Origin: a virus
Lineage: Duplodnaviria > Heunggongvirae > Uroviricota > Caudoviricetes
Strand: one strand, 5' to 3'
IMG/VR virus record: IMGVR_UViG_2690316068_000002
DNA length: 64,000 nt
A model generated the notes under the pieces. The model had not been told where the DNA came from, searched no databases, and saw only the letters and a list, made by a program, of their open reading frames with translations. This document shows, piece after piece, positions 12,196 to 62,157 of this stretch; within the stretch, counting starts at the first letter, position 1, and each line of letters begins with the position of its first letter. A program made the position numbers and the translations under genes.

Positions 12196-12765
12196 TCAAT
12201 TAGAGCTTTGAAAGGCTTTGTGTGGCTGTGTTGCGAGGTTATGTCGATGGCTTAACTCACGCATCATGTCTTCAAGCCGACTCTTTGTGTCGTCGAGTTG
12301 GTCGGCCATTGCTCCCAAAAGCTGACGAACGGCCATCGGATCATCGCTGTTTAGTGATGGCATTTTATAACCCGCCTGAGAAGACATAAGATTGAACGCA
12401 GACATCAACATCGTTAGAGAGGATGTAAGCCCAGCAATTTCACGATCTTTGCTGGCAATAATCGCCTCACTCTTGTTAGTGTCATCAGTTCGTTGAGTCT
12501 CGCTCACCATATCCAAAGTCGCCTGCAACTTATCAGCGCGCTCTTTTTCAGCAAGATAATGAACACCGAAATGATGTGCTAAAGCTACAACCTGAGTTGG
12601 CTCTTCAAAGGTGGACTCAAAATTAAGTGCTGTAACCACTCTCTCAAATATGGAAACGTCTTCTATTCCTCGAAGAATGGCTAACATTTTGACCAGTTCA
12701 TTAGCATCCATTTCTTCGAATAAGGCGTTTTGTTCATCAGCTATCGCTTTGCATTTCTTGCACAT
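12196..12765 (-). CDS. Hypothetical protein
   Basis: 189-aa ORF; conserved upstream motif and ribosome-binding context. Confidence 0.5.
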   Translation of the reverse strand: MCKKCKAIADEQNALFEEMDANELVKMLAILRGIEDVSIFERVVTALNFESTFEEPTQVVALAHHFGVHYLAEKERADKLQATLDMVSETQRTDDTNKSEAIIASKDREIAGLTSSLTMLMSAFNLMSSQAGYKMPSLNSDDPMAVRQLLGAMADQLDDTKSRLEDMMRELSHRHNLATQPHKAFQSSN

Positions 12766-13062
12766 GTGTTTTTCCTAATGCTTAAACAAGTTGTTTTCTT
12801 ATTGGCTTTATTGTGATGTGGCATAAAAGGGGAGCAAGCTAAACGTAAAGGTGCAAACTCTCTATTTCGGTCAACGAAACACAAGGGCCATTTGGCCCTT
12901 GTCATTAACACGTTGCTTTACGGACTAGCGGATAAGCGAAGTAGATCGCCAGACCAATGAGGACGCCATCAGAAATGACAGACATCATCTTTCCCGTAAA
13001 ATCCACCAACACCGCCATCACCAGAAGAGCAATGACGGTCACAAGCCGGAATCTCTCAAGCA

Positions 13063-13488
13063 TTAGAGATAAGCATCCAGTGACAACTGAAGCGCCTGTG
13101 CGATCTTTTTCAGGGCCAGCTCTTCTTGTTCGCCAATACCGTCTTGGTCGGCAATATCAAGGCACAGACACAGTACATCTACTGCATCATTAGTCCCGGC
13201 CACATCAGCCAGCTCACGTAAAGCCTGGGCATTAGCGCGGCGCGGTGAGGCTTCGTATTGAGCACGGATATTGGCGCTCATTTGGGCAATCTCACCAGCA
13301 AACGGAGAAAACGCAGGCAGAGCTGCAATTGTTTTCTCAAGAATGGAAATTTCCTTTGCGTCGCATGTGCCATCGGCATAGGAGATCATGTACGCGCCCC
13401 ACACGGTGGCTTCAACCGCATCTCGGTTCTCCATTTTTTTGACCTCGATAACAGCTTTACGAGTTTTCTTTTTGAATAAACCTAACAT
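13063..13488 (-). CDS. Hypothetical protein, TerB-like fold suspected
   Basis: 141 aa; weak motif-level resemblance to TerB. Confidence 0.35.
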   Translation of the reverse strand: MLGLFKKKTRKAVIEVKKMENRDAVEATVWGAYMISYADGTCDAKEISILEKTIAALPAFSPFAGEIAQMSANIRAQYEASPRRANAQALRELADVAGTNDAVDVLCLCLDIADQDGIGEQEELALKKIAQALQLSLDAYL

Positions 13489-13581
13489 GTGCTTTCCTTT
13501 TGTTATTTGTTAAAACAAGTTGTTTTCTAGTTACATGAATTGCTTACGAAAAGACGGTCAATGCATATGCACTAACAACCG

Positions 13582-13779
13582 TCAGAAATAACCAAGTACC
13601 GAACCGACTGGAAAAACAAAAATCCCAACAACACGAGCCAAGGTCATACCAGCCTGAAACTGGAGATCACCAGAGCAAACGAGTTTTACAATGTTCGATA
13701 CCCAACCGGCGGCCATGAGAGCTATGAAAGCCAGAATCGCCAGCCAAGTTTTTCCAAAGTGATTTGAAAACCAGTTCAT
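13582..13779 (-). CDS. Small membrane protein (2 predicted TM helices)
   Basis: 65-aa hydrophobic ORF; 4-nt overlap with upstream ORF. Confidence 0.4.
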   Translation of the reverse strand: MNWFSNHFGKTWLAILAFIALMAAGWVSNIVKLVCSGDLQFQAGMTLARVVGIFVFPVGSVLGYF

Positions 13780-14283: not shown

Positions 14284-14428
14284 GTGGACTCCATCCAGTG
14301 TCAGAAAGAGTTGCGGCTGGCGATTGCCAGCCGCCTTTCTCGTTCCATCCTGGAACTGTGTCTTACCGACACATTGTCATCCTGACGCCGATAAGATACA
14401 TGATTTAAAATGATAGGTAAACACTTAC

Positions 14429-15073
14429 TTACTGCTTGTTGTAAACAAAACCAATATCTTTCTTGTGAGGCATATCTGCTGCGGAAAAAGCTGCGATCTT
14501 CGCGAGTCGATCACATATTTCATTTTCACGATGCCCGGCGTGACCTTTAACCCACTTCCAGCGAACATTATGTCGACTTGCAGCCTCATCCAGACGCTTC
14601 CACAGATCAACATTCTTTACCGGTTTTTTATCAGAAGTCATCCATCCATTACGTTTCCACCATTTCATCCACTGTGTCATGCCGTTTTTCAGATACTGGC
14701 TATCAGAGTACAAAATAACGTTGCATGGATATTTCAAACGCTCCAGCCCGATAAGTGCGCCCATCATCTCCATGCGGTTATTGGTGGTGCTATGAAAACC
14801 ATCTGAGAACTCGCGTTCCTCACCACGATACTGGAGAACGATACCGTAACCGCCCGGGCCACCCGGATTTTTAAGGCAAGAGCCATCACTAAAGATTTTC
14901 ACGGTTTTGAGCTGGGGATTGAACTCTACGACAGGCGTTGTGGGATTGGTGCGGGGAGATTTTTTGTTTTTGGCTTTTTTGCGAGTTTTTGCTTGCGATC
15001 GGGCTGGTGTCTTCGTCGTCATATAAACTCCTGAATCAAGCGCCGCGCCGATTTTTTCCTCGCGCGTGCGCAC
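14429..15073 (-). CDS. Ribonuclease HI with N-terminal basic extension
   Basis: [21 protein letters not shown]...[10 protein letters not shown]...[16 protein letters not shown] aligns to E. coli RNase HI catalytic residues. True start may be an internal Met. Confidence 0.8.
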
Positions 15074-15999: not shown

Positions 16000-16020
16000 A
16001 ATTACAGACGCCAGAACAAA

Positions 16021-16614: not shown

Positions 16615-16682
16615 CTTCTTTCTCGATAGGTAAGTGATTACCTATTTTTGCATTTGATTTTATGTCTGGCAATCAAATAAAA

Positions 16683-18751: not shown

Positions 18752-18812
18752 TTTTTATCCTTAACCCATTTTGAGAGTTTTATTGTCGCAATGTCGAAGA
18801 GGCGAACAATTT

Positions 18813-22565: not shown

Positions 22566-23708
22566 TTACAGGTCTGCAAACTGGCTTAGAGAAGCCTTGT
22601 CCACGGTAGAATCGATCTGACCTACCAGATATGTGCTTTGCTCTGCCTCTTGTGGTGCAATTTGCAGTGTGTCGGTTAACAACCACTTGTTCATCCAGAC
22701 CAGCGGATCAGTGGTAACTTCTGGAAATAAAGCCTTCAGGCCAAGACGATTCATAGCCAGATTGGTTCGGTATTTTACATAGGTCTTCAGAATATCCGCG
22801 TTTAAACCAATCATCGAACCGTCTTTGAAGAGATAGTCTGCCCAGTTCATTTCTTGTTCGGCGACTGATTTCATGGTGTCGTAAATGACGTTTTCTTCAT
22901 CAGCAGCAATCTCTTTCCACAATAAACCTTCGCGACCGGTACGCATGAAGCGGATCATGCGTTCAGTTCCTTCGCAATGCAGAGCTTCATCACGGGCAAT
23001 AAAGCGCATAATTTTGGTGTTACCCTCAAGCAACTTCCGTTCGCCAAAGGCAAACGTACATGCAAAACTTACATAGAAACGGATCGCCTCAAGCGCATTA
23101 ATGGACACTAACGTGCGGAAAAGCTGACGGTGCAAAGGATATGGCTCCCAGCCATATTCATTTACGTACAGACGCTCAAATTCCTTCTCGCCTAACGACT
23201 GGCGATCGCAGGTCATCCCATAAAGCCTGTCATATTCAGCAGAGATACTGATGGCTCGGTTGATGATTTCTTCATCCGTAACAATACCGTCAAAAACAAT
23301 ACTCGGATCGTCCACCATGCCACGAATAATGTGGGTGTAGCTGCGGCTATGGATAGTCTCAGAGAAAGACCACGTTTCAACCCACGTTTCCAGTTCAGGA
23401 ATAGAGATAAGCGGCAGCAGAGTTGCGTTTGGGCTACGTCCCTGAACTGAATCGAGCAACGTTTGATAACGGAGATTACTCAGGAAAATGTGGCGTTCGT
23501 GGTCCCGCAGCTTCGTATTGAAGTCGATGCGATCGCTCGAAATATCAACTTCTTCCGGCCGCCAGAAGAAAGACAATTGACGTTCAATCAACTTTTCAAA
23601 ATCACGGTATTTTTGTTGATCGTAACGAGCCACGTTGACAGATTGTCCGAGGAACATAGGCTCTTTGGTTGCATCATTAGCACCCAAACGGAACGTTGAA
23701 TATGACAT
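22566..23708 (-). CDS. nrdB: Ribonucleotide reductase class Ia beta subunit
   Basis: 380 aa; near-collinear with E. coli NrdB. Confidence 0.92.
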
Positions 23709-23808
23709 GTGTTTTTCCTTTTTTGATGTGTTTAAACAAGTTGTTATCTTATGTGTTTAAACAAGGCTTACAAATCAAAGATAAGGTGGGGATATACCCC
23801 ACCATATG

Positions 23809-29655: not shown

Positions 29656-30741
29656 TCACACAGCCTCCGAACTCTCCGCTTCGGTGAGGATTTCCTGACA
29701 CAAAATATCCAACTTGCTCAGATCAAATCCGCCGTCAGTATCGTGGACAATCTTGCAATAAGCAGATACCGACTCTCCCAGGCTATCGATTTTGCTGGTT
29801 TCCGTTGTGCTTGCTGTCCCTTCCATCATTGATGACTTACGGATGAAGTTGCACACAACACCTTTTGCACCCATTGTTTTGAGGATGTTCTGGTACTTAA
29901 TGCCTTCTTCGTCGTTCTCGATTACGGCGCGGAAACGCACGTAGTTGCCGCGAATTTGGTCATCAGCAACATAATCTTCCAGGTTAATGAATTTAGGCGC
30001 ACTAGTTTCGTAGTGACTAAAACTGCCGTCCGGGTTTACGATCATGTAACCAGCCAGAGAGCCAACATCCCCCCAATTTTGATGGGTCAGTGCACCGACA
30101 CTGATAACTCCAGGAATGACCTCTTTGTGGTTGTGGTAATGCCCACTAAGCACGAGACGAAAGCCGATATCCTTTAACTCCTGCGCATCAATACCGACGT
30201 CAGGCATTGTTGGAATGGCTTTGTTGATGGATGTATGGATAACAACGTCATGGTTATCACCTTCTACGCTCTTACGTAACGTTTTCAGATCGCTGATAAG
30301 CTCCGCATGATTGTTACGCCAGCTAATCAGGTGGACAGTGACATCACCAATTTTTATTGAGTGTGGGCGTTTTCCACATACGATTACCACGCCGATAGAA
30401 CTCAGCGATGCTGCTGCGTTGGCGCTATATACTGAATCGTTGGTTTCAAGATCGTGATTACCGGCCAGCATTACTACTGTCAGATCAAGCTCGTTGATAA
30501 TCCACTTGTACGTTTCAGTTACGTAATGCAGAACAGAAGGGGACACAGTTCCTCGGACGTGAAATGTATCACCGGCAACCAACATGTACTTACAACCAGC
30601 CTTCTTCATGGCGATGGCGGCTTCTTTCGTTGCTTCCAACTGTATTTCAAGTCTGGAGTTAAGCCCCTCAGCGTTCGTCGTGGAGAACGCATCCCATTTG
30701 TGGTAGTGGCAGTCAGAAATGACGCCGTATGGCAAAGTCAT
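29656..30741 (-). CDS. SbcD/Mre11-like nuclease (T4 gp47 analogue)
   Basis: Start moved to internal ATG 30741 with conserved ribosome-binding context; calcineurin-like phosphoesterase motifs. Confidence 0.8.
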   Translation of the reverse strand: MTLPYGVISDCHYHKWDAFSTTNAEGLNSRLEIQLEATKEAAIAMKKAGCKYMLVAGDTFHVRGTVSPSVLHYVTETYKWIINELDLTVVMLAGNHDLETNDSVYSANAAASLSSIGVVIVCGKRPHSIKIGDVTVHLISWRNNHAELISDLKTLRKSVEGDNHDVVIHTSINKAIPTMPDVGIDAQELKDIGFRLVLSGHYHNHKEVIPGVISVGALTHQNWGDVGSLAGYMIVNPDGSFSHYETSAPKFINLEDYVADDQIRGNYVRFRAVIENDEEGIKYQNILKTMGAKGVVCNFIRKSSMMEGTASTTETSKIDSLGESVSAYCKIVHDTDGGFDLSKLDILCQEILTEAESSEAV

Positions 30742-30967
30742 GTGTTTTTCCTTTGTGGTTATTTTGATACAGATATTAAGTGTGTTTGAGAGGCGAACAA
30801 TCCAGATAACACGGCCATTAAGAATGTTCACAGACACATGATTATGGCAAATTCATAGGTAAGTGAATACCTATTTTTATGGGCAGCAAAGATTTCTAGA
30901 TGTTACAAGCCACTCTATAATCGCAGTCACTTAATGATGACAACCAAACGAAAAAGGAGAACTGACG

Positions 30968-35698: not shown

Positions 35699-35753
35699 GT
35701 GTTTTTCCTTTTGTGGTTAGTGTTTACTTATTTTGTTAGTTATGAATAGGCGA

Positions 35754-42448: not shown

Positions 42449-42754
42449 TCTGTTCTCTGTAAAGGTGTCTGGCATCGTCTGGTTCGTTAACGTTTACTAA
42501 ACCAATGGTGACAAAAATTAGTTATCTTTGAAAAATAAAGGTTGCATGAAAAGAAGGGGTATGCGTTAATAGCATCGTTGGTTTGCAAGACAGACCTTAT
42601 GTAAGCAGTTTTAGTAAAGCAGTCTCAGTTCAGTGTTATCTTCTGATTTCCCTTCTTCGTGAGTCTCCTCCTTAAGTGCCTAAGTAAGTCCCAATCTATA
42701 CAGATCAAATTCTCGCCGCACTATGTGGCTCACAAAATTAAGAAGGTAATATCT

Positions 42755-42970
42755 ATGTCTAATAAAATGACTGGTTTAGTAAAATGGTTTAACTCTGATA
42801 AAGGCTTTGGCTTTATTTCTCCTGCTGATGGCAGTAAAGATGTTTTTGTACATTTTTCGGCAATTCAGAGTAATAATTTCCGCACTTTGGAAGAAGGCCA
42901 GCAGGTCGAATTCTCTATCGAGAATGGGGCTAAAGGCCCAGCAGCAGCAAATGTCGTTGCTCTAAGTTGA
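42755..42970 (+). CDS. Cold-shock protein, CspA family
   Basis: 71 aa from ATG 42755; [13 protein letters not shown]...[13 protein letters not shown]-track start 42659 lies in the long leader. Confidence 0.9.
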
Positions 42971-43245
42971 TTCAACGCTGATGATCCTCATTTCTACAAT
43001 AACGAAGACGGTGTAAGCCTGAGTGGATAGATTTGTAGGATTGTACAAGTTGAATAAATTAGCATGGTAAGGCCATGCTAATTAAATCGACACAACGGCC
43101 AGTTTATTCCATAAAAGTGAATTGCCCATTGTGGCGAAATGCGGGGTTGCCGCATGAATAGTCAAAGGCAGAAGCTAACTGCCGGCATGGCAAAACAAAG
43201 TGCGTAAGAGGAGTGACTTCCTCAACAAGCGCCATAATTCTTTAT

Positions 43246-43273: not shown

Positions 43274-46200
43274 TTACTTATTTATTGTCTCCGCGATATC
43301 AGCCAGAATGGCCTCCAGTCGCTCTCCTTCTTCCGGTCGGAAGTACAGGATATTCGGGTTAAATCCGTAGAAGACGGTTGCATCAAGCTCTGGGAAGTAC
43401 TCCTTACGACCAATCAGATCTGATGGTTTACTCTTATTGTTAAATAGTGCGGTTGAACGACTACCACACGTCAAAATGTAGGTCGGACGCACCAGATTGA
43501 TCTCTTCACGCATAAAGTCGGTGAACTGGCCGATCTCGTCTTTGGTGTAGTCTTTTTCTTTGTCTTTAACCTTCTTGCAAACGCCTGTGACATAGAGATC
43601 GCCCATGCGTAAATCTCCAGCCGTCAATAGCTTGGCCTTAAAGTCGTCGTATCCGTTCTCCATGAAGTAACCGGTTCGAGCATCATTGCCGTTCGCATTG
43701 TCCAGAATGATCATGATTTTCGGCTTAATACCAATGTTGGGGCGGATTAGTTCATCACCTAAGCCCATTTCAGCCGCCATCCGTGTCATGAGCACGTTAA
43801 TCTCAGCCGAACGTTTGGGGTTCATCTCAAACGGACGTGAGGCTTTAACTGCGTCTATGACAAGGTTTCCCATCAATTCAGCCTGGTCGCGTAGGCGCTC
43901 TGGATCAGTTGCTGGCAGACTACCTGGCTCGATGGATGCAAACGCCCCTACTTTTTGCAGCGATTCGCGCACTCGACTATTACAGGCACGTTTCTCGACA
44001 GCTTCTTCGAATTGCGCCAGTGACTCGAATTTGCCGCCAACTTTTTCTCGCGCTCTCATGATGGCTTGGCAGCCATTCTCAGAACACCCCTTCACAGCAG
44101 AGAAGGGCGCATACAGCACCTGGCTGCCATCTTCAAGCGTGCGGATCTCGATTCGGTTAGATGACACGTTAACGTCTGGTGGCAATACGCGAATACCATA
44201 GGTCAGCGCATCTTTAACCAGCCCCTGGTGTTTATCTTCGCCAAGAATAGTGAGAGCAGCAGCGAAAAACTCTGCGGGATAATGAGTTTTCAACCACATA
44301 GATTGATAACTGATTAAGGAGTAGGCAACAGAGTGTGATTTATTGAACTGGTAGGCACCATTTTTTTCGAATGCGGTCCAGATCTCCTTCGCTTTCATCT
44401 CTGATAGCCCTGGATGTGACGCTGTAACGCGTACTGCGTTTATAGGTAGTTTTGCGCCGTGCTCAAGTGCCTCTTCGACAGTTTTCAGAGTTCCGTCTTC
44501 GCATTTAAAATGTTCCGCACGGTGAATGCGCTGTGTAGTGCCATCTTCCAGCTCAACGTCTATCCAGCCAGCTTGAGCCTGAACGATGAACTTCTCGCCC
44601 ATGCTCTTCATTTTTTCCATGTTCTTCTTACCGATTGCGGAACGCACACCGTCAGCTTCAGCCATTGTGAAGCCGGCAAGCAATCGAGTCGCGTTCATCG
44701 TCTGTTCCTGATAGAGAATCACGCCATTTGTTTCCGCGGTAAGTTCATCAAGAACGGGGTGTAATGATTCCGGCGTCATAAAGCCTTTGGCGACAGAAAC
44801 ATAGTCGTCCAACATGCCGGATTGGATCGGGCCAGGTCGGAAGAGTGCGGTCGTGGCGACAACGGTTTTAAAGCTCATTGGCTCAATGCCACCGCCTAGA
44901 TCTTTAAGCAGCTTGCGCATGGGGCCGGACTCCAGCTGGAATACGCCCTGTGTATACCCTGCAGCAAAACCATCCAGCACCTTGCGATCTTCAAGAGAAA
45001 TGGCATCAAGATTGATATCTTCACCTGTGTTCTCTTTTATGTAGCGTTTTGCACTATCGAGCAAATCGAGAGTTGCCAGGCCAAGCACGTCCAGCTTAAT
45101 TAGGCCCATAGCCTCGCAGTAACGCTTGTCAAATGCGATACAACGCGCGTCACCACGGCGCTCAACCGGTGTACGTTCTGTCAGAGGAACACCTGCTACA
45201 ATCATCCCTGCCGCATGTCTACCAAAGCCACGCATAAGGCTTTGTAACTTGCAGGCTGCATTGAATGCATCAGGATATTTTGTTGCGTATTTGTCGAGAC
45301 TTGCCAGTTGTTCGCGCAGCTCTTCCAATGGAAGGCTATCATCCTCGACGTTCTTCAGTTCTTTTGATACCGCCATATCTGCGGACTCCACACCATAAAT
45401 ACGAGCGGTGTCACGTAGTGCAGAGGCTGCGCCCAGGTAGGTGAAGTTCGGAATGCCTGCAACGTAATCTTCGCCGTAGCGTTCATTCAGATACTCGATC
45501 ACCTCATGGCGACGTGCCTGGCTGAAGTCCAAGTCCGCATCCGGCAAGTCGAGACGCTCAGGGTTGATGAAACGCTCAAACAGAAGACCGTGACGGATTG
45601 GGTCGACGTTGGTTATGCCTATGCACCACGCCACCAGAGAACCGGCAGAGGAACCACGACCAGGCCCGACAGGAATGCCAGTTTCACGGCTGTGATTCAT
45701 CAGATCGCGTACCATCAGGAAGTAACCACAAAATCCCAGGCGAGTCAGCGTGTTCATTTCGTACTTTAGCCGCTCAACATAAACCCTGTTCTCAGAAGCA
45801 GGTGGTGTGTATCCAAACTCTTTTGTGGTAAGACGTTTACGCAGCCCTGCAACAGCCAGTTTCATCAGCGTTGCAGGTTCGTCGTCTGCCATCTTGGGCA
45901 GTGCTGGTGGCAATTCATGCCAGCGCCATGTGCAGGCATCGATAATGGAGTCCTGCGTTGTTGAGGCCATTGCAGCTGTTACCGGCACATCCATGCGAAC
46001 GGAGAAGGCTTTAAGCGCCTCAAGGAGATGGCGACGACCATTGATGGCGTTATCTCGCTGGTGGGGGATACGCAGACGATGCGGCTGGTCGATTTTTATG
46101 TTGTTCGTAACCATGTGCGCAATGTCTTTAATGTCTGCATCGTCGATCGATTCGTAATAAGCGGGATAGAACGCTACTGGCTCTATTTTCAGTGCGCTGG

Positions 46201-46792
46201 CTACTTTCATCGCTCGGACGTTAATCTGGTCGTAGAATGGGGTAGGGTGCGGATAAACCACGCTATAGAAGTTGTCTTTCCCGCCCGCTGTAATCAGTGA
46301 GCTTATGATTTTTGCAAAATCGTTGCGTTGGAACACGCTACCGATGTCGGAAGTGAGCAGGATGATGTTGCCTTTGGCATATGTAGAAACCAACTGTTCG
46401 AGCGAGAGACGCGGTACAAAGTAGAACTGTTCTCGTGTGTTGGCCACCGTCATTAGTTCGCAGATGTCGCGATATCCTTGCTCATTTTTAATTAGAGCGG
46501 TAAACGAGTAGTTACGTCCCCGCTCTAATGATTCCATACATCTCATAGATTCTTTAGCAAGTTTAGCCCGGTGCTCGTATGTGGGATCATCAACGATATT
46601 TAGTTTCACACCACAAATAACCGCCATGTCGTCACCAGCGGCACGTTGTAGTGGAATAACGCTCGCAATATTCATGCTATCTGCTGAAATTACAGCGGTG
46701 TAGCCAGCTTCTCTGGCAATCTTCACCGCGTTTTCTGCTTTTAGAGCCGACTCCCCAAGTGAGAAGTCAGTTCGAACCATCAGTGCCTTCAT
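43274..46792 (-). CDS. DNA polymerase III alpha-type (DnaE family) replicative polymerase
   Basis: 1172 aa; N-terminal PHP domain; GPGRGSSAGSLVAWCIGITNVDP motif; conserved ribosome-binding context. Confidence 0.9.
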   Translation of the reverse strand: MKALMVRTDFSLGESALKAENAVKIAREAGYTAVISADSMNIASVIPLQRAAGDDMAVICGVKLNIVDDPTYEHRAKLAKESMRCMESLERGRNYSFTALIKNEQGYRDICELMTVANTREQFYFVPRLSLEQLVSTYAKGNIILLTSDIGSVFQRNDFAKIISSLITAGGKDNFYSVVYPHPTPFYDQINVRAMKVASALKIEPVAFYPAYYESIDDADIKDIAHMVTNNIKIDQPHRLRIPHQRDNAINGRRHLLEALKAFSVRMDVPVTAAMASTTQDSIIDACTWRWHELPPALPKMADDEPATLMKLAVAGLRKRLTTKEFGYTPPASENRVYVERLKYEMNTLTRLGFCGYFLMVRDLMNHSRETGIPVGPGRGSSAGSLVAWCIGITNVDPIRHGLLFERFINPERLDLPDADLDFSQARRHEVIEYLNERYGEDYVAGIPNFTYLGAASALRDTARIYGVESADMAVSKELKNVEDDSLPLEELREQLASLDKYATKYPDAFNAACKLQSLMRGFGRHAAGMIVAGVPLTERTPVERRGDARCIAFDKRYCEAMGLIKLDVLGLATLDLLDSAKRYIKENTGEDINLDAISLEDRKVLDGFAAGYTQGVFQLESGPMRKLLKDLGGGIEPMSFKTVVATTALFRPGPIQSGMLDDYVSVAKGFMTPESLHPVLDELTAETNGVILYQEQTMNATRLLAGFTMAEADGVRSAIGKKNMEKMKSMGEKFIVQAQAGWIDVELEDGTTQRIHRAEHFKCEDGTLKTVEEALEHGAKLPINAVRVTASHPGLSEMKAKEIWTAFEKNGAYQFNKSHSVAYSLISYQSMWLKTHYPAEFFAAALTILGEDKHQGLVKDALTYGIRVLPPDVNVSSNRIEIRTLEDGSQVLYAPFSAVKGCSENGCQAIMRAREKVGGKFESLAQFEEAVEKRACNSRVRESLQKVGAFASIEPGSLPATDPERLRDQAELMGNLVIDAVKASRPFEMNPKRSAEINVLMTRMAAEMGLGDELIRPNIGIKPKIMIILDNANGNDARTGYFMENGYDDFKAKLLTAGDLRMGDLYVTGVCKKVKDKEKDYTKDEIGQFTDFMREEINLVRPTYILTCGSRSTALFNNKSKPSDLIGRKEYFPELDATVFYGFNPNILYFRPEEGERLEAILADIAETINK

Positions 46793-46976
46793 GTGTTTTT
46801 ACCTTTCTGGTTTTTTTGATTTTGTCATTTGGGAAGCCTACGAACTTCCCATGCATCGAAATCGCAACTTCTTTTGCTGATTGGTGACAATCGGGCTTGT
46901 CTGGACACACCAGACAAGCCTTACCAGTTTCAGAAGCAGCGATAAGAGAGCCGAAACATCCTTTACGCACGATCAA
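46767..46976 (-). CDS. Small Cys-containing protein (possible zinc ribbon)
   Basis: 69-aa ORF between CobS-like and DnaE genes; overlaps DnaE start by 26 nt. Confidence 0.25.
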   Translation of the reverse strand: MIVRKGCFGSLIAASETGKACLVCPDKPDCHQSAKEVAISMHGKFVGFPNDKIKKTRKVKTHEGTDGSN

Positions 46977-48208
46977 CCAAATATTTTTTGAACAACTTCA
47001 CGAGCCGCTTGTGCAGAAGCTGAAGGGAGTTTGTTAATGAAAGAACGCTCAATACCTGTCACAAAGTCGCCTCGCATCATTCCAATCTTGGCCGACAACA
47101 AAAGTTCACGAGGGCCAATTGGCTGACTGATAAGGTGTTCTTCGTATCCATCGCGAACGATACCGGCAAACTTAACCATCTTTTCTGCGTATTCATCCAC
47201 GATACCGGCATTTATCAACATGTTGATCTCTGCCTCTTTGCTCATGTATTTCACATTCGAAACGATGCCAAAACGCGAAAAGTTCGCGGCGTTCTGGATG
47301 TTTGTACCCTGGTACAAGCCGGTTTCATCACCAGATCCGTTCGTGTTGCCAGTGCCAATGAAAGCAAACCGTTCATGCGGAGTAATGCGACGCCATTCTG
47401 GAGTCGCCTCTTTGATGACCAACGCTTCACCTTCCAGCACTGGCTGATACACGCCAAGAATCTGTGGAAACGCAAAGTCGTATTCATCCGCGAGGTAAAC
47501 CCAGCCATGCTTCATTGCGAGCGCAAGCAAGCCAGGCTCGAAATACGTAGAGCCATCACGCGCCAGAATTTGTCCCGTAACATGAGCCTCTTCCATTGAT
47601 GCTGTATGTTGGGCACGGATTAACGGACGATTGAGCAAAGCACATAGTTGTGTAGGCAATGAAGATTTGCCTGTTCCTGCATGACCCCACAAATAGCCAG
47701 GTATGCCAAGTTCAAGCATCATGAAAATGTCTTTGATCAGTTCGAAGTCGCCATATACGTATCCCTTCTTCACTTCTGGAACGAACTCTGGAAACGGCGT
47801 ATTGACGTTGACGCTAACCATGAGCGGCGTCCCACGTTTTGTTCCGAGTTCTTTCACCGTTACATTTAGCAGTTCGTGAGCTGCGACCAGATCTGTCTTG
47901 TACTCAACTGTGCCTGTGTAGCCTGGGCTACTGGTCACGCCAGATGATTTGGCCATTTCGCTTTTTTGCTCGGCACGTTTAGCTTGAATTGCATCAAGTG
48001 CCTTTTTCGATAGCGTTGGCTCATCTGGAAACTGTGTTGTGTACATTTTCAGTACGGTGTCAGGATCGGCATCTTTTACTGACTCAGGAATGCCCTCGCA
48101 ATTACCATTGGCAACATGGGACTTAAAATAGTGAAATGATTTTCCGCACCACTTGCAAACAAGGTAATCAGAAGGATTTTTTTCATTTTGCAGTGCAGTA
48201 GTAGTCAT
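46973..48208 (-). CDS. AAA+ ATPase, CobS/MoxR-like
   Basis: 411 aa; Walker A GHAGTGKSS; FAFIGTGNTNGSGDETGLYQGT CobS-like motif. Confidence 0.6.
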   Translation of the reverse strand: MTTTALQNEKNPSDYLVCKWCGKSFHYFKSHVANGNCEGIPESVKDADPDTVLKMYTTQFPDEPTLSKKALDAIQAKRAEQKSEMAKSSGVTSSPGYTGTVEYKTDLVAAHELLNVTVKELGTKRGTPLMVSVNVNTPFPEFVPEVKKGYVYGDFELIKDIFMMLELGIPGYLWGHAGTGKSSLPTQLCALLNRPLIRAQHTASMEEAHVTGQILARDGSTYFEPGLLALAMKHGWVYLADEYDFAFPQILGVYQPVLEGEALVIKEATPEWRRITPHERFAFIGTGNTNGSGDETGLYQGTNIQNAANFSRFGIVSNVKYMSKEAEINMLINAGIVDEYAEKMVKFAGIVRDGYEEHLISQPIGPRELLLSAKIGMMRGDFVTGIERSFINKLPSASAQAAREVVQKIFG

Positions 48209-48303
48209 GCGTTTTTCCTTTGTTTTCTAATGAGCGTTCAACTTCTTATATAAATATATCATTATCTATCGTAAGTGGTTACTTATCATTAAGGCTGTTT
48301 TAT

Positions 48304-50412: not shown

Positions 50413-50510
50413 GGCTAATCCTTTGTTATGAAAACAAATTATTTACTAGTGTGTTTAATGTAGCACTGCGCGAACAGGGAACTAAGCCATTCGCGCAGGG
50501 AGAAGAGGGG

Positions 50511-50723: not shown

Positions 50724-50974
50724 TCAATCAATCCATTCTAACTTATACTATGGTAAGGAATACTACTAAAATTTGTATCAATACTGAATACATTCATATC
50801 ATATGCAAGTTGATTTTCTTACCTGTTTTGGGCTAATTTTTCTCCGTGCAATGGCCTTTAACCGGTCTTTTAAGTGCCTATCGAAAAAAATGATAATAGC
50901 TTTACAACCCTAACCTTTGATGTAATATCGGTAAGCACTTACCAGAGAGAATTGAACGCGCAAAGGTTGTAACC

Positions 50975-51361
50975 ATGTCTGATAACAAGATTGAATTTAT
51001 AGAAAGTCGCTACGCTGCTTTTATCGCAGGGTTGATTGAATCCTCACCTATGAGCCAGGCCCAGATAGCCAAAACAATTGGGTATAAAAACGCCAACAAC
51101 CTTTCTTTAATTAAAAGCGGCAAAATTCCTTTGCCTATCGATAAGGTTCGTCCGCTGGCGCTGGCACTGGGCATTGAGCCAAGTCGTCTTATGATGATGG
51201 TGCTGGAAGAACGCCAACCCGAACTCGCAGCATTTTTATACAAAGAAGGCACTGCTCCTCTTAACGAGGACGAAAAACAGGTTCTTGCTGCATATAACGA
51301 GCGATTCGGTAAAGAGAAAGGCGCATCACAAAAGGTTGTTGAGGCCATAAAGTCTCTATGA
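50975..51361 (+). CDS. HTH (XRE/Cro-CI family) transcriptional regulator
   Basis: 128 aa; SQAQIAKTIGYKNANNLSLIKSGK HTH; convergent with integrase. Confidence 0.6.
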   Translation: MSDNKIEFIESRYAAFIAGLIESSPMSQAQIAKTIGYKNANNLSLIKSGKIPLPIDKVRPLALALGIEPSRLMMMVLEERQPELAAFLYKEGTAPLNEDEKQVLAAYNERFGKEKGASQKVVEAIKSL

Positions 51362-52459
51362 AAAATTTACACGAATAAGCTCTGTTGATAGACGATCTCC
51401 CTTAAATTTGTGGTCAATTTCGTCTAAATCCGGTTGCTCTACGATTGATGCGATGTACGTCGAGAAACTTTCTAAGGCGTCTCGCATCTCGTCCATATAA
51501 TCGTGCCGGTCGTAGACCCGATCTATCCCCTCAAGACTGTGGTTCATGATTTTACGTGATACCTCCTGGCTTATGCCTAATGCTGGGAAGTAACTACGCG
51601 CAGTACGGCGCAAATCTCGGGGTGTAAATGGCTCAAGCTCCATCAGTTCTGGTCGTTCCAGAATACGACGTAATGCCTGGGCTATTGCCACTTTAGACAT
51701 AGGAAGGTCTTTCCCGATTTTTTTATTCGAAGGCACGAGCCACTGGCTGTCTTTACCATATTCGAACAACTCTTCAATACAAGTGCGCATTAATGAGCTT
51801 AAAGGCAGAGAATGCTCACGGGCAGATTTGTTCCTCTTGCCTTGATTCCAAACCCCACGCTTAAGATTGAACTCACTTTTTTTAGCCCGCAGTACTTCGT
51901 CAGGTCGTCTTGCGGATACAAGACATAGCCTGGCCGCCCATTTTGTACCAGCACACACATTGAAGTAGTCCCATATATTCCAGAACACCCATACCTCTGC
52001 GTCGGTCAGCTTCCGCTCGCGAGGTGTGGGCTTTGCGCCACCGGCAACTTTGTTAAGTGACATATCGTTTAACGGTGACACGTCTATCATCCCCTGGAAG
52101 GCGCACCAGCTAAGGAACTGCTTCATCAGAGAGAAAACGCGGCGGCCCATAACAATTTTGCCATCCAGTATTAGTGGGTTGACCAGTTGGTTCACCATGA
52201 ACCTATTAATGTCACTTACTTTTACATCGGCAATGTGCGGCAAAACATGTATCAAAATACAATGAACAGCGATCTCTGGCCGACGTCTGGTTATCAGCAG
52301 AGATAAGCGAGTGAATAACATGAATGCGTCCGAGAATCTCATGTCATTGCTGACCTGGGAGATCATAACGGCCTGCATTTGAGATGCTCTTTCGAGATAC
52401 TCTATCGCCTCTTTTGAGGTGTTCTCCGCAGCGCGTGCTCTGTCAAAGCTATTTTTCAT
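51356..52459 (-). CDS. Tyrosine recombinase / phage integrase family
   Basis: 367 aa; C-terminal RDLRRTARSY...NHS...VYDRHDY catalytic motifs. Confidence 0.8.
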   Translation of the reverse strand: MKNSFDRARAAENTSKEAIEYLERASQMQAVMISQVSNDMRFSDAFMLFTRLSLLITRRRPEIAVHCILIHVLPHIADVKVSDINRFMVNQLVNPLILDGKIVMGRRVFSLMKQFLSWCAFQGMIDVSPLNDMSLNKVAGGAKPTPRERKLTDAEVWVFWNIWDYFNVCAGTKWAARLCLVSARRPDEVLRAKKSEFNLKRGVWNQGKRNKSAREHSLPLSSLMRTCIEELFEYGKDSQWLVPSNKKIGKDLPMSKVAIAQALRRILERPELMELEPFTPRDLRRTARSYFPALGISQEVSRKIMNHSLEGIDRVYDRHDYMDEMRDALESFSTYIASIVEQPDLDEIDHKFKGDRLSTELIRVNFS

Positions 52460-52557
52460 ATGACAATCACCGAGTTACGCCGATGCACTGTATAAGTAAA
52501 CAGTATATTAGGCATAGATTCTTATAGGATCAAGAGTAAAAGTAACTCATTTTCAGC

Positions 52558-54960: not shown

Positions 54961-55036
54961 TGGTGCCGGTTAACGGATTCGAACCGCCGACCATTCGCTT
55001 ACAAGGCGACTGCTCTACCAACTGAGCTAAACCGGC
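54961..55036 (-). tRNA. tRNA-Thr (anticodon UGU)
   Basis: GCCGGTT/AACCGGC acceptor, encoded CCA, anticodon loop CUUGUAA, TTCGAAT T-loop. Confidence 0.75.
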
Positions 55037-55040
55037 AATT

Positions 55041-55127
55041 TGGTGGGGAGTGATGGAGTCGAACCACCCGAGTCGCAATGACAGTAGATTTACAGTCTAC
55101 ACCGCTACCTCTACGGACTAACTCCCC
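55041..55127 (-). tRNA. tRNA-Tyr (anticodon GUA), type II
   Basis: GGGGAGT/ACTCCCC acceptor, encoded CCA, anticodon stem-loop GACUGUAAAUC, long variable arm. Confidence 0.75.
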
Positions 55128-55132
55128 TAAAT

Positions 55133-55207
55133 TGGCGATGGTGGGTGGATTCGAACCACCGACCAGTTGGTTAACAGCCAACTGCTCTACCGCTGAGCTA
55201 CACCATC
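55133..55207 (-). tRNA. tRNA-Asn (anticodon GUU)
   Basis: GATGGTG/CACCATC acceptor, encoded CCA, anticodon loop CUGUUAA, TTCGAAT T-loop. Confidence 0.75.
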
Positions 55208-55595: not shown

Positions 55596-55985
55596 TGCTG
55601 GCTAACCATACCAGCCGGGCTACGTCGCCGCTTTTTAACCCAGTATAAACGACATAATTGAACAAAATGACGTAACAGGATGGGCGGTCAGTGGCTAAGA
55701 ATCCGGGAGTCATATGGAGTTGAAAATATACCAACCGCCCATTCTGTTACTTCATCGGAGGGAACATGAATGTTCCCTCCTGCGTTCTGCAATCACACTC
55801 GCTCAGTGTGTCCCATTTCGGTAACGAGGCTGGAAACTGACCTCGCTGGTGTTTGGCTTATTAGGCTACTGCCAGATAGACTTCTTCGTTTGCACTTGTA
55901 TTTAAGTTCAAACAGTCGCGTCTCAACGAAAACAAAGTCATCTTATACATAAAAGATAAGTAAGTAAATACTTATTATTGTATTT

Positions 55986-58119: not shown

Positions 58120-58598
58120 TGTTGTTTTGCCTCCATATGTTGATCGATTTGCTCATGTGTTTCTTTTGTTGTTTCTTCAAGCAACGCCGCATACACGTCA
58201 GTGATCGCTGTTTGTGATGTGGTGCTCTTCTTAACCATGCCATTAATCGTTACACTGTCACGTTTTCGTTTTATAGTTCTGGCTTGTTTATTCCGTTCTT
58301 CAACCTCCTTAATGAGCGCGGTCATATCTTCGAAATACAGAGATTCTCCTTTACGAATCTCTTCAACCATCATTTTTAACGCCTTGCATTTGCCTGCTTT
58401 GATAGCGGTTGCGCACGACTGGAATGAAGTTCGAGGAAGACGGTTTTCTTTGAAGGCAAGAATGGTGTGCTGGCAAACGGAGTAGCTGCAATATGCCGAC
58501 TCACCGTTTATCTTTACTTCCTCACAACGAAGTGAATAACCATTATTTCCTGAAATAGAGGGGATTTTTGACAAATCAGCTTTCACAACTACCGCCAT
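58116..58598 (-). CDS. Hypothetical protein
   Basis: 160-aa ORF, 4-nt overlap with ligase. Confidence 0.5.
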   Translation of the reverse strand: MAVVVKADLSKIPSISGNNGYSLRCEEVKINGESAYCSYSVCQHTILAFKENRLPRTSFQSCATAIKAGKCKALKMMVEEIRKGESLYFEDMTALIKEVEERNKQARTIKRKRDSVTINGMVKKSTTSQTAITDVYAALLEETTKETHEQIDQHMEAKQQ

Positions 58599-58652
58599 AA
58601 ATAATCTTGTACTTACCTATCGTTATTTGCGTAAAAACGACGCACGGAGAGA

Positions 58653-59435: not shown

Positions 59436-59510
59436 ACCAACTCCTAGCTAACAGATGAAAGTATTCTCACAGAAAGATAAGTAATCATCTACTTATTTTA
59501 AAGGTGATTG

Positions 59511-60692
59511 TTATGATAGAGCCTTAATGCCCAAAACCTTGCTTTGCAACTCCAACTGTTTGGTATACGGTTTTGCCCGATAATAGGCTTTGATAATTTG
59601 TTCTGGCGTTGCACCGCCCGGGTCGAGTCCTTCCTCACCCAAACACGCAACTTTGACATTAAGACCGATACTGGTCAGTCGCCTGGCTGCGGCCATAGTG
59701 TTGCGTATAGCTTGCTTTTCACTATCCCACATCATGATCACATTACGTAACCCACGCGCCTTGAGCGTCAGGAACGCGCCTAACTGATCTTCTGCATCCT
59801 GAGTGGTGTTACCAGATAGATGCATCCCGAACGTTCCTATTGGTTCCACGTAATCACGTAATGTTTCTTCGTCAAAAATAGCTCGTTTAACCCCCATAAC
59901 ATCGAACGCCCCCTCACAGACAACTACAGTCTGTTTGCCGACTGCATTATGGCCGTTGTAGAGAAACTTACCTGAAGCTGGAAGTTGCATAGGAAAGAGG
60001 TAGCGGCGTTCTGCTGTACCGGTAATGTCTCGTCCCTGAAATGTCTTCATTACCCCATCCAGATCGTAAACCGGTATCAGTATTCGCATATCGAATATCT
60101 GTCCTTTAACCTGATCTGTATACGGATCTACATAAGCGTGCTTGCCTTCGACGCAGTATCGTAGGTCAAAATACTTTGCCATTTCAGGTGATATGTTTCG
60201 TTCAACCAGATAGTCTGGAAGACGGCCATCTATAGGAAGTTCGTAATGACGAGGGAGTGCAAGTGGTCCCTCTAACTCGACTGTGCTTGCAAGCACTATC
60301 TCTTCTTTCTTTGGTGCCCACCCCTGGGAAAGAAGGGCGTTCTGCACATATTCCTCGAACTGTCGTCGTGATTTGCCGCTGTAGTGCTTGAGGAAGACCA
60401 GCTTATTGAACTGAATCTCTTCGGGATGATCACCAGCAAAGCATTTGCCGACGCCACTGGTCAGATTGAAATATACCTTCCAGTTGGAGCTGCCGCATAC
60501 CGGACATTCCTTGATATTCACTTCACGACCGCGAGCACTCACGCCTCCACGTCGATAAACGATACCTTCAGTATCCAACCATTGTTCAAAATCTAATTCG
60601 GCAATTAGCTCTTTCAGCTCGCTCACGATAATTCCACTTTTAACAGGCAATATTGTGACCAACCTAAATGTTGATATAACATAAAGGCTCAT
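59511..60692 (-). CDS. DNA primase (zinc ribbon + TOPRIM)
   Basis: Start moved to ATG 60692 with conserved ribosome-binding context; CPVCGSS...C zinc ribbon; VVVCEGAFDVMG TOPRIM. Confidence 0.8.
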   Translation of the reverse strand: MSLYVISTFRLVTILPVKSGIIVSELKELIAELDFEQWLDTEGIVYRRGGVSARGREVNIKECPVCGSSNWKVYFNLTSGVGKCFAGDHPEEIQFNKLVFLKHYSGKSRRQFEEYVQNALLSQGWAPKKEEIVLASTVELEGPLALPRHYELPIDGRLPDYLVERNISPEMAKYFDLRYCVEGKHAYVDPYTDQVKGQIFDMRILIPVYDLDGVMKTFQGRDITGTAERRYLFPMQLPASGKFLYNGHNAVGKQTVVVCEGAFDVMGVKRAIFDEETLRDYVEPIGTFGMHLSGNTTQDAEDQLGAFLTLKARGLRNVIMMWDSEKQAIRNTMAAARRLTSIGLNVKVACLGEEGLDPGGATPEQIIKAYYRAKPYTKQLELQSKVLGIKALS

Positions 60693-60773
60693 GTGTTTTT
60701 CTTTTGTGGTTTGGCAAAAGAAAAGTTGTTTCACAAATGAATCAAGCGTGGAGGTGTTCTCCACGCTTATTTT

Positions 60774-62114
60774 TTAGGTAACGTCTAAGATTCGCTCAAT
60801 GAAACGCATTTGTTCGAGGTTTTGTTTAACGCGAATGCTGATCCCACCCTGCTGGTTACGTGAACCAGCAAAGTAGAGACGAGCCTCTCCTTTCGCTTCT
60901 TCTTCTTCGGTTTTGTTGATCGTTATTACCAGGTCAGCAATACGTACTTTTTCGATGTTATCGGCGGCGTGCATCATTGTGGCAACTTCTGACGCGCCAC
61001 CTTCACGGTTTGTCTGCGATGCCGTGATCCCAGCAACGTTATGCTTGTCATAAAGAGCACGTAAATCGGTGTAGATACTACGAATGTTGGCGCGATCATC
61101 ACGAAGGTCATAACTGGCACGCATCAAATCTGCGTAGTCGACAACAACCATGTCAGGCACCATGCCGTTGGCTTTCATGCTGTTAAGCATACGGTCCAGA
61201 TCTGCCGGTGACATACTTCCTGACGGACGCTCAACAACCCACAAACTACCAATCCCCTTAGAGGCTCCCAACTCTGCCAACTTACGATGAACTTCATCGC
61301 GCCGTTCCACCAACTTGGACATTTCCGTCTCCGACAATCTTGCATCAAAACGGTCGGACAAAATGTTGGTGTGAACCTCCAGCGAGAGATACAGAACATT
61401 GTAGCCAGCAAGCGTTGCGTTTATGGAAAACTCACCCATTGCGGTCGATTTACCGGATTTAGCGAACCCCATGAAGAGCACCATTTCACGCTTCGCCCAG
61501 CCTTTTTGGTACAGCAACCTATCGAGCAGAGGGAGTCCAGTTGTAATGCTGTTTGGCACATACTCCTCTGAGGCCTCATATTCACGCGCTTTCAGTCGCT
61601 CACTTGCTGAGGTGTAGTAGTCATAGATTCCGGTTGCTTCGTTCGAGCCTATCTGCTGAACCTTGGCCATGATTGCCATCGCCCCCTGAAAGTCGCCCTT
61701 CTCTTTCAGTTCAGCAGCCTTAATCAGAGCATCATCAAACGCTACGCTTTTTGCGAAGGTTGATACCTGGTCAACCATGTACGAGGTATCGGACAATTTT
61801 TCTGCAAGGATGCGCTTAAACGCAGCAACAACATCGGCGAATAGTTCCTCACGGATAGTCTTATCGCGTTTCGCACGCTTAAGCATATCCAGAATTGCAG
61901 ATGAAGAGGGCGCGCTCTTGTACATACGGTAATAGCCCGAAACCATATTAACCAATATGGCATTGGCCGCATTGGCAAATTGGTTAGGCACAACCAGATC
62001 TCCCGCACGAGTAAGAAACTCGTGATCACGACAAAAATATGCCGTCAGTCTGTTCTGGAAATCTTCATCAAACTCTTCGGACAGCCCGCGTCCTGTATGG
62101 CAAAGTTCGGTCAT
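60774..62114 (-). CDS. DnaB-like replicative helicase
   Basis: 446 aa; Walker A GFAKSGKS, Walker B VVVDY, ASQTNREG H3 motif. Confidence 0.85.
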   Translation of the reverse strand: MTELCHTGRGLSEEFDEDFQNRLTAYFCRDHEFLTRAGDLVVPNQFANAANAILVNMVSGYYRMYKSAPSSSAILDMLKRAKRDKTIREELFADVVAAFKRILAEKLSDTSYMVDQVSTFAKSVAFDDALIKAAELKEKGDFQGAMAIMAKVQQIGSNEATGIYDYYTSASERLKAREYEASEEYVPNSITTGLPLLDRLLYQKGWAKREMVLFMGFAKSGKSTAMGEFSINATLAGYNVLYLSLEVHTNILSDRFDARLSETEMSKLVERRDEVHRKLAELGASKGIGSLWVVERPSGSMSPADLDRMLNSMKANGMVPDMVVVDYADLMRASYDLRDDRANIRSIYTDLRALYDKHNVAGITASQTNREGGASEVATMMHAADNIEKVRIADLVITINKTEEEEAKGEARLYFAGSRNQQGGISIRVKQNLEQMRFIERILDVT

Positions 62115-62157
62115 GTGCTTTCCTTTGTTTTTTAAACAAATTGTTTTCTAGTATTAG

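Follow-up and report, generated by a model that had tools for sequence, protein, structure and literature searches.

A repeated 17-base palindromic motif before early genes of SSU5-like phage-plasmids points to a coordinately controlled gene class and is a candidate operator

The stretch of 64,000 nucleotides analysed here (IMG/VR record IMGVR_UViG_2690316068_000002, hereafter the window) belongs to an SSU5-like phage-plasmid of Escherichia coli and carries its replication, recombination, and nucleotide-metabolism module. A 12-kb piece of it matches Escherichia phage Cyrano (pLF82) at 97% and, less closely, Salmonella phage SSU5 (about 77%), and nearly all of its genes lie on the minus strand because the window runs from about position 94,000 of Cyrano down to 30,000. 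A 17-base motif, termed motif 2, recurs just upstream of gene starts in this element and its relatives, and its distribution gives good support to the view that the motif-bearing genes form a coordinately controlled class of about 20 early, replication, and maintenance genes. Judging from the sequence, motif 2 may be a DNA operator that is located just downstream of sigma-70-type promoters and cooperatively bound by a phage repressor, a reading on which our judgement is evenly balanced.

On the gene strand, motif 2 reads GAAAACAAYTTGTTTAA with the palindromic core AAACAAnTTGTTT. Searching the window for TTAAACAARTTGTTTTC with up to two mismatches returned six matches compared to 0.04 expected, and none of 100 shuffled sequences reached six. 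Five of the six were located where the original prediction had listed them, and its placement of the motif at 15–35 nt upstream of starts was upheld, with motif 3′ ends 14–23 nt before the five ATGs. The sixth copy (8241–8257), in opposite orientation, had been overlooked. The site previously described as weaker near position 50431 does exist but is poor, as it has three mismatches and its best match is in the opposite orientation. The copies in the window and their immediate partners are as follows.

12782–12798, minus strand: motif 2 GAAAACAACTTGTTTAA, 16 nt before the ATG of the 189-amino-acid CxxC gene (12196–12765); orthologous copies at Cyrano 81276 and SSU5 81743
13511–13527, minus strand: motif 2 GAAAACAACTTGTTTTA, 22 nt before the ATG of a TciA-like gene (13063–13488)
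23732–23748, minus strand: motif 2 GATAACAACTTGTTTAA, 23 nt before the ATG of the ribonucleotide reductase beta subunit gene (RNR-beta, 22566–23708); SSU5 orthologue at 70217
23757–23764, minus strand: additional right half-site TTGTTTAA, placed 25 bp 5′ of its counterpart in the 23732 copy and kept in SSU5; it looks like a degenerate tandem partner of that copy
36194–36210, minus strand: motif 2 GAAAACAATTTGTTTAA, 14 nt before the ATG of a DUF7238 gene (35754–36179)
62132–62148, minus strand: motif 2 GAAAACAATTTGTTTAA, 17 nt before the ATG of a DnaB-like helicase gene (60774–62114) and 10 nt past the stop of the upstream gene
8241–8257, plus strand: upstream copy O1, opposite orientation; lies against a terminator hairpin, with its start 51 bp ahead of the 8190–8206 copy
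8190–8206, minus strand: degenerate proximal copy O2 before an Eae-like gene (start 8187); left half GAAAACAAC intact, right half replaced by the Shine-Dalgarno sequence GGAG
50430–50446, plus strand: weak copy with three mismatches before cobT (start 50412); a strong sense copy stands at the orthologous SSU5 site

In an alignment of 38 sites, positions 2–8 and 10–15 were nearly invariant, positions 4, 5, 11, and 14 fully so, and the central position 9 was free (A10 C9 G10 T9). The arms AAACAA and TTGTTT are exact reverse complements, making the core a 13-bp palindrome, and the ends are asymmetric, with G1 on one side and A16 plus a weaker position 17 on the other. Across gene-proximal copies, the distance from motif to ATG varied between 6 and 38 nt and that from motif to Shine-Dalgarno sequence between 0 and 15 nt.

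Since SSU5 was fetched by overall similarity and independently of motif 2, it served as an unbiased comparator for conservation. Allowing up to three mismatches over whole genomes, 18 distinct sites were found in Cyrano and 20 in SSU5, the latter corresponding to 23 strand-hits versus 0.6 in shuffles. Orthologous sites in SSU5 precede the genes for the helicase, RNR-beta, the CxxC protein, parA, cobT, and small early proteins, and two stand just 5′ of terS; their flanks diverge between SSU5 and the window while the 17-mer is kept. The earlier proposal of coordinated control of a gene class is well supported by the presence of the motif at orthologous intergenic sites of SSU5, whose DNA is only about 76% identical. 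Its description of that class as replication genes was too narrow: the motif is also found at parA, in the region upstream of terS, before a DUF4942/methylase gene, at cobT in SSU5, and before some ten small early genes that lie outside the window. An exact-match scan of IMG/VR yielded more than 120 loci, mostly on contigs of about 100–112 kb of the SSU5-like family; having been chosen by exact match to the motif, these loci were used for context and spacing only and not as proof of conservation.

The motif keeps a tight register with sequence on its promoter side. A T is found 12 nt upstream of G1 in 34 of the 38 sites, preceded by A-A (36 of 42 rows if wrap-around duplicates are included), and at about ten sites this T ends, by eye, a GATAAT, GAAAAT, or CACAAT hexamer, sometimes with TG two bases earlier. 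The recurring layout is RCC-TTTT-N9-hexamer-N11/12-motif. Over all sites, the position of the motif is held far more strictly relative to the upstream T than to the ATG. The motif does not itself represent the dedicated promoter that had been suggested; it sits at a fixed register 3′ of a -10-like element. Its use as the -35 or -10 of the downstream gene was rejected because, at 14–23 nt from the ATG and with the Shine-Dalgarno sequence in between, it is too near the start codon for either element. Reading the CCTTTT 5′ of the hexamer as a terminator tail holds at some sites (36194) and fails at others (Cyrano 93130). Likenesses to the T4 MotA box, sigma-28 promoters, and the PhoP box were dropped due to misfits in spacing or sequence and because no cognate factor is annotated.

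A separate -35-like element with TTGWTC(S)CCT-N-hexamer architecture at 16-bp spacing is common to four sites in the window, one of them before the helicase gene, and these TTGATCCCCT elements would, by their sequence, act as promoters. Terminator-like hairpins stand just 5′ of the 8241, 12782, 13511, 23732, and 36194 copies, so new transcription units probably begin at motif copies. The -35-like elements and hairpins are located as follows.

62168–62177, minus strand: -35-like TTGATCCCCT, followed after 16 bp by AATACT ending 1 nt before the helicase motif copy
35748–35757, 30791–30800, and 18800–18809: sister copies of the TTGATCCCCT -35-like element
12881–12902, minus strand: terminator-like hairpin, about 85 nt 5′ of the 12782 copy
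23785–23803, minus strand: terminator-like hairpin between RNR-alpha and the 23732 copy
36230–36254, minus strand: terminator-like hairpin GGCGTCCAGTTGGACGCC with a T6 tail, located about 20 nt 5′ of the 36194 copy and kept in relatives

Copies also occur in pairs with two fixed spacings. In about 12 contexts across relatives, a reversed upstream copy starts exactly 51 bp before the proximal copy, the two bracketing a -10-like GATAAT hexamer; these pairs include 8241/8190 in the window, 93112/93163 in Cyrano, and 88317/88368 in SSU5. Tandem pairs 25 bp apart were found in three contexts, namely before terS, in the gap of a split dnaE gene, and, in degenerate form, before RNR-beta. Some motif copies stand upstream of a -10-like hexamer: before parA, the motif is followed after 3 nt by a conserved GAYAAT and would therefore cover the -35 region.

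Several motif contexts differ between the window and its relatives. In some relatives (locus L010 119–3383; also L025, L067, and L121), the gene for the Pol III alpha subunit is split into open reading frames (ORFs) of 677 and 386 amino acids, and the 70-nt gap between them holds two tandem copies of motif 2 at 25 bp followed by aaaggaaaacac-ATG; in the window, Pol III alpha is encoded by a single ORF of 1172 amino acids (43274–46792). At locus L003 3640–3710 (minus strand; also L005, L011, L015, L044, and L058), one motif 2 is followed by three extra GAAAACAA half-sites in non-coding sequence, an array that is absent from the window and could be iteron-like or decoy-like. A perfect motif 2 stands in SSU5 in the leader that corresponds to the gene with start 11138; at this position, the window (about 11141–11180) has a 12-bp hairpin TTGCACCATTAA...TTAATGGTGCAA instead, and only the half-site TTAAACAA is left. 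In Cyrano (58593–58640), ATA replaces the ATG of the DUF7238 gene that follows a perfect motif, while the window (36179) keeps the ATG.

As a DNA operator, motif 2 would work as follows. The 17-bp site with its core would lie just 3′ of weak-to-moderate sigma-70-type promoters heading about 20 transcription units, and should the -10-like hexamer that ends 12 nt upstream be a genuine -10, about +5 to +22 would be covered by the proximal copy. A dimeric phage-encoded DNA-binding protein is the candidate ligand, which would block initiation or promoter escape; all units would thereby be turned off at once, be it during lysogeny as a plasmid or once the early phase is over. Cooperation of two copies is envisaged wherever tight repression is needed, the two being either inverted at 51 bp and bracketing the -10/-35 region or arranged in tandem at 25 bp, i.e., as 17-bp sites with 8-bp spacers as in lambda OR. 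The sequences directly show the sites, their number and conservation, their register to the upstream T and to the ATG, and the fixed spacings of the pairs, while promoter activity of the upstream hexamer, a dimeric protein as ligand, and a repressive effect are inferred. Dyad symmetry, copy number (18–20 per genome), and fixed-spacing pairs are all traits of operators for dimeric repressors. An operator at the DNA level is favoured by an exact dyad without RNA structure, the tight promoter-side register, copies outside leaders, the fixed pairs, and silence in the lysogen.

Regarding the latter, RNA-seq of the Cyrano lysogen places motif genes near background (helicase 21, CYRAN_58 5.7, CYRAN_85 7.0, and CYRAN_87 7.1, with a median of 9.8), while parA, which lies behind a motif site, is expressed at about 50 (PMC9928086, supplementary table). 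Because the motif genes are simply silent, these LF82/Cyrano data are uninformative for the mechanism.

A structured RNA operator was excluded by weak folding, non-compensatory variants, and the lack of an Rfam match at any motif site. The six leaders in the window had minimum free energies of -1.5 to -15 kcal/mol (z -1.1 to +1.3), no better than shuffled sequences; a tighter range of -1.5 to -4.9 kcal/mol (z -0.5 to +1.3) was also recorded for motif leaders. The motif alone folds at best into an A-U hairpin of 5–6 bp with a 3-nt loop. Site variants such as A3>T, G12>A, and A7>T break the pairing and do not compensate for one another. A stable hairpin or riboswitch-like pairing with the initiation block was rejected on the same grounds.

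Other observations weigh against a repressor operator on DNA. The 17-mer is intrinsically asymmetric, with GAAAAC at one end and GTTTAA at the other, and its G end is 5′ on the coding strand in all of about 14 independent gene-proximal contexts, an orientation that a symmetric DNA-bound dimer does not predict. Many copies contact the Shine-Dalgarno sequence, e.g., ...GTTTAAggag, which fits translational control. No promoter was called at motif sites in a strict sigma-70 scan, and the would-be -11 A of the hexamer is not conserved over all sites. Since the 51-bp modules are visibly homologous to one another, their fixed spacing may in part reflect common descent. Pfam scans covering 20 proteins, half of them small early ones and half candidate regulators, detected no clear DNA-binding regulator and no cognate repressor that can be linked to motif 2; the only results among the 20 were a sub-threshold HTH_19 (helix-turn-helix) match, an S24 peptidase, and the FljA family, none tied to the motif. 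The sole helix-turn-helix match in the window (50975–51361, HTH_19, E = 8e-4) is below the Pfam cut-off and has no motif copy nearby, and the one conserved regulator-like protein that was characterised, the FljA-family protein described below, has an RNA-binding fold and no helix-turn-helix.

It is due to this protein, which is encoded outside the window, that the translational operator offered in the original prediction, although not the best reading, is a live rival. CYRAN_114 of Cyrano (SSU5_121 in SSU5) is a full-length match to Pfam Flag1_repress (FljA, PF03614; E = 1e-80), and its gene (Cyrano 100780–101301; L124 5781–6302, minus strand) is a core gene of SSU5-like elements. Homologues were found in 12 of 12 SSU5-like phage records and almost nowhere else among 50,697 records. 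Six of these elements are from Klebsiella (65–75% identity), where fliC cannot be the target because Klebsiella, to our knowledge, lacks flagella. Most of 86 homologues reside on contigs of 105–112 kb, and chromosomal FljA is just about 40% identical. The protein models as two tandem Hfq/Sm-like domains without a helix-turn-helix, which suggests that the whole Flag1_repress family may bind RNA. According to its title, the study by Yamamoto and Kutsukake from 2006 is said to have FljA acting against fliC mRNA translation. FljA-type proteins have been reported to prevent the translation of fliC mRNA (PMC2652032; bioRxiv 10.1101/2025.10.27.684867), while some papers still call FljA a transcriptional repressor, which counts against the parallel.

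In this alternative, which we consider possible but would not favour, the FljA-family protein would bind the A-rich and U-rich 17-mer in the 5′ leader of the mRNA. As the motif is 0–15 nt from the Shine-Dalgarno sequence, binding might, by tentative analogy to Salmonella FljA on fliC, block ribosome loading, and GGAAAAACAC-AUG could contribute to the surface that is recognised. The resulting proposal, of which we are doubtful, is a post-transcriptional regulon of SSU5-type elements (including S. Typhi pHCM2-like ones), wherein a tandem Hfq/Sm-like FljA protein would bind GAAAACAAYUUGUUUAA, and perhaps GGAAAAACAC-AUG, in about 20 leaders and silence the translation of early, replication, partition, and packaging genes. 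The sense orientation in all gene-proximal contexts, the unstructured and hence accessible leaders, the contact with the Shine-Dalgarno sequence, and the use of the motif inside an operon, between the split dnaE halves, are in line with it. The Salmonella/Citrobacter fliC leader (...CCCAATAACATCAAGTTGTAATTGATAAGGAAAAGATC-ATG) has in common with the motif the core 8-mer CAAGTTGT, an AU-rich 17-nt dyad, a distance of about 19 nt from core to ATG, and the AAGGAAAA Shine-Dalgarno context. However, the CAAGTTGT match was found post hoc, and, aligned on this core, the leader differs from the consensus at 8 of 17 positions (7 without the free centre) and would not count as a motif 2 site. Complementary arms have no obvious use in single-stranded RNA, where they form 5–6 weak pairs without covariation, and no motif copy lies near the FljA-like gene itself. 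The reversed copies at 51 bp, the parA copy 5′ of a -10-like hexamer, and the SSU5 copy at 87623 beside a convergent terminator would be unexpected in a leader, as would spacing that is nearly constant relative to the upstream T yet variable relative to the ATG. On these points, action at the DNA level seems to us somewhat more likely than action at the RNA level.

Three further explanations were considered, all of them improbable. Motif 2 might be a positive promoter element, where a phage activator or a phage-modified RNA polymerase reads the hexamer and the palindrome (plus the upstream copy, if present) to define a temporal (middle) class, which is close to the dedicated promoter proposed before and which we regard as unlikely. 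The fixed register of the upstream T/AAT to the motif, weak core elements that a strict sigma-70 scan misses and that would fit activator dependence, an upstream copy whose centre would fall near -38 and thus close to a class II activator position, and the silence of motif genes in the lysogen all agree with such an element. However, the majority of sites lack an upstream copy, and the downstream one, at about +5 to +22, is not where activators usually act. Annotations of Cyrano and SSU5 show no sigma factor, RNA polymerase, or MotA/AsiA-type factor, and limited Pfam scans found none; the expression of parA in the lysogen also misfits a lytic-only class. Even less probable is binding by a host protein common to Enterobacteriaceae, e.g., an IHF-like nucleoid protein coupling expression to host physiology. 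One consensus is indeed found in elements from E. coli, Salmonella, Klebsiella, and other hosts, and AAACAAnTTGTTT loosely resembles the IHF consensus WATCAANNNNTTR (a lead, not a test), but two mismatches fall on the most informative IHF positions, and exact IMG/VR matches beyond SSU5-like contigs appear scattered and chance-like, within genes. We know of no enterobacterial factor with this palindrome. Similarly slim is the prospect that the copies are module boundaries or mobile promoter and ribosome-binding-site cassettes, spread by recombination like the T4 PeSL elements and without a dedicated trans-acting factor. Here, the mutual homology of the 51-bp modules, the two motif copies with a stereotyped ribosome-binding site inside the split dnaE of some relatives, and six exact repeats of the 12-mer GAAAAACACATG would be explained. 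Recombination can account for the origin of copies but not for their maintenance: the 17-mer (with positions 4, 5, 11, and 14 invariant) is held by purifying selection while the flanks diverge between SSU5 and the window, which argues for a sequence-specific ligand.

Besides motif 2, many genes carry a stereotyped initiation block. All nine starts for which a nearly identical initiation region had been claimed check out, but several of them match only the 3′ two-thirds of the string originally quoted. The full 17-mer CCACAAAGGAAAAACAC is exact only at 30741, and with up to three mismatches it has 5 matches versus 0.30 expected, all abutting start codons. A sharper unit is GAAAAACAC-ATG with six exact and four one-mismatch copies (10 versus 0.74 expected), every one at a gene start. 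CAC at -3 to -1 is found at 13 of 69 minus-strand starts versus 0.88 expected, and the starts at 13488 and 62114 carry GGAAAGCAC-ATG. The ten copies, all on the minus strand, are listed below.

30739–30758, minus strand: full-length AACCACAAAGGAAAAACAC-ATG, SbcD-like gene, start 30741; kept in SSU5
9389–9400, minus strand: exact GAAAAACAC-ATG, start 9391
12763–12774, minus strand: exact GAAAAACAC-ATG, start 12765
23706–23717, minus strand: exact GAAAAACAC-ATG, start 23708
35696–35707, minus strand: exact GAAAAACAC-ATG, start 35698
60690–60701, minus strand: exact GAAAAACAC-ATG, primase gene, start 60692
37303–37314, minus strand: one-mismatch GGAAAACAC-ATG, start 37305
40771–40782, minus strand: one-mismatch GAGAAACAC-ATG, gp32-like SSB gene, start 40773
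46790–46801, minus strand: one-mismatch TAAAAACAC-ATG, Pol III alpha gene, start 46792
48206–48217, minus strand: one-mismatch GAAAAACGC-ATG, cobS-like gene, start 48208

The block is kept at SSU5 orthologues, including those with a different Shine-Dalgarno part, e.g., as ...aaggaaaagacac-ATG, ...agggaaacac-ATG, and ...aggtaaacac-ATG. Based on its sequence, GGAAAAACAC-ATG is interpreted as a translation-initiation cassette that would be common to the first genes of units, free of structure, and of high efficiency. Block and putative operator can be separated, as many genes carry one without the other. In SSU5 (L125), a canonical aaagaaaaacac-ATG at about 35840 lies about 65 nt upstream of the annotated primase start at 35905 and matches the window start at 60692; the annotated SSU5 start is probably wrong.

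Further regulatory features were observed in the window. A second palindrome family of 20 bp, ATAGGTAAnnnnCTTACCTAT, is unrelated to motif 2, is likewise kept in SSU5, and is probably the first motif of the earlier reading. It is placed either just 5′ of a TGn-extended -10-like hexamer (9391 and 59435) or against the Shine-Dalgarno sequence (16614 and 62898), and its copies are the following.

9434–9453, 14413–14432, 16626–16645, 30855–30874, 55956–55975, 59477–59496, and 62911–62930: 20-bp palindrome ATAGGTAAnnnnCTTACCTAT
Before starts 21448, 26124, 37305, 48208, and 58598: looser copies of ATAGGTAAnnnnCTTACCTAT

Two LexA boxes (consensus CTGT-N8-ACAG) are located on the minus strand at 2641–2656 and 52488–52503, directly 5′ of an S24-peptidase gene (129 amino acids, 2233–2622) and of the integrase gene (51356–52459), respectively, which suggests that SOS induction may enter via these two genes. 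A 16-nt repeat, ATTGATACAnATTTTA, is found at 41342–41357 and 50767–50782 (minus strand), upstream of the starts at 41295 and 50723; the gene starting at 50723 is divergent from the putative helix-turn-helix repressor gene (50975–51361), and the repeat may be the operator of an immunity repressor. At 42577–42994 (plus strand), a full-length Rfam cspA thermoregulator (187 bits) with a CspA-like ORF was detected, i.e., the phage-plasmid has a cold-shock gene with its own regulatory leader. Three clustered tRNA genes lie at 54964–55207 (minus strand), annotated in Cyrano as Asn, Thr, and Ser.

In form, the closest parallel to the combination of motif 2 and start block appears to be the SAS/ESAS elements of Cluster K mycobacteriophages, i.e., start blocks plus 17-bp inverted repeats, whose function was still unverified in 2025 (PMC3203893; PMC12699233). 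Both systems have a stereotyped block containing the Shine-Dalgarno sequence directly before the starts of a gene subset, nearly all in one orientation; about half of the SAS genes have a 17-bp inverted-repeat element immediately upstream, and the elements are kept at orthologues across the cluster. SAS is, however, GGGATAGGAGCCC, unrelated in sequence to the (A)AAGGAAAAACAC-ATG found here, and ESAS consists of two imperfect 17-bp arms with a 4–13 bp spacer in contrast to a single 17-bp site with arms of 6–8 bp and a one-base centre. Host and phage lineage are unrelated as well, and the upstream element here also occurs in fixed pairs at 25 and 51 bp around a -10-like hexamer. The initiation block is no match to the 13-nt GGGATAGGAGCCC (up to two mismatches, 3–8 nt before starts), nor does motif 2 have the form of paired imperfect 17-bp inverted repeats with a 4–13 bp spacer 5′ of an SAS, and the architecture alone is alike; as sequences and repeat geometry differ, motif 2 is not a member of SAS/ESAS.

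The sites of P1, lambda, and KorB may in turn resemble motif 2 in likely mechanism. The C1 repressor of P1 has 15–20 dispersed 17-bp operators over about 100 kb, some of them paired, before replication and lytic genes including a DnaB-type helicase (ban). The present element is likewise a phage-plasmid with dispersed 17-bp sites, some paired, before a DnaB-type helicase gene, but the C1 operator is asymmetric and unrelated in sequence (ATTGCTCTAATAAATTT), and motif 2 is a putative repressor site. Operators for lambda CI/Cro are 17-bp dyads with an odd centre that overlap promoters and are arranged in tandem at 23–24 bp centre to centre, compared to 25 bp here; they form one switch, in contrast to a genome-wide scatter without a linked CI/Cro-type protein. 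KorB of RK2/RP4, of the ParB family, acts in global co-repression at 12 dispersed OB sites, 13-bp palindromes (TTTAGCSGCTAAA) with a single central base, some just 5′ of a -35. Dispersed single-centre palindromes are common to both, and SSU5-like elements encode two ParB-like proteins and have a motif before parA, but OB sites have no sequence similarity to motif 2. For none of these three systems was a defining protein found, and in the case of C1 no search was aimed at a homologue.

On the RNA side, FljA/fliC shares with the present system the protein family, an AU-rich dyad just 5′ of a AAGGAAAA Shine-Dalgarno sequence, and the core CAAGTTGT; it differs in the protein (about 40% identity), in the leader (8 of 17 positions off), and in having one known target versus about 20 putative ones. 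RegA of T4 is a single phage protein that lowers translation via AU-rich sites in the initiation regions of at least a dozen genes for early functions, replication, and nucleotide metabolism. Gene classes and site positions are thus similar, but RegA sites overlap the AUG and are non-palindromic, and a RegA homologue was neither annotated nor detected here.

The gene set defined by motif and start cassette has apparently not been described before, and the searchable literature yielded no description of regulatory motifs or circuitry for SSU5, pHCM2, or phage-plasmids. Phage-plasmids of the SSU5/pHCM2 type occur widely in E. coli, Salmonella (including Typhi), Klebsiella, and Enterobacter, with resistance genes on some of them. 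A shared 17-bp site across about 20 units represents the first candidate regulon of this family, and motif 2 gives direct experimental access to the choice between maintenance as a plasmid and lytic growth. If the ligand proves to be the FljA-like Sm protein, this would explain the role of the FljA family beyond flagellar phase variation and would provide a tractable enterobacterial counterpart to the mycobacteriophage SAS/ESAS system; in that case, FljA, the phase-variation repressor of Salmonella with fliC as its one target, would have been domesticated from a phage system.

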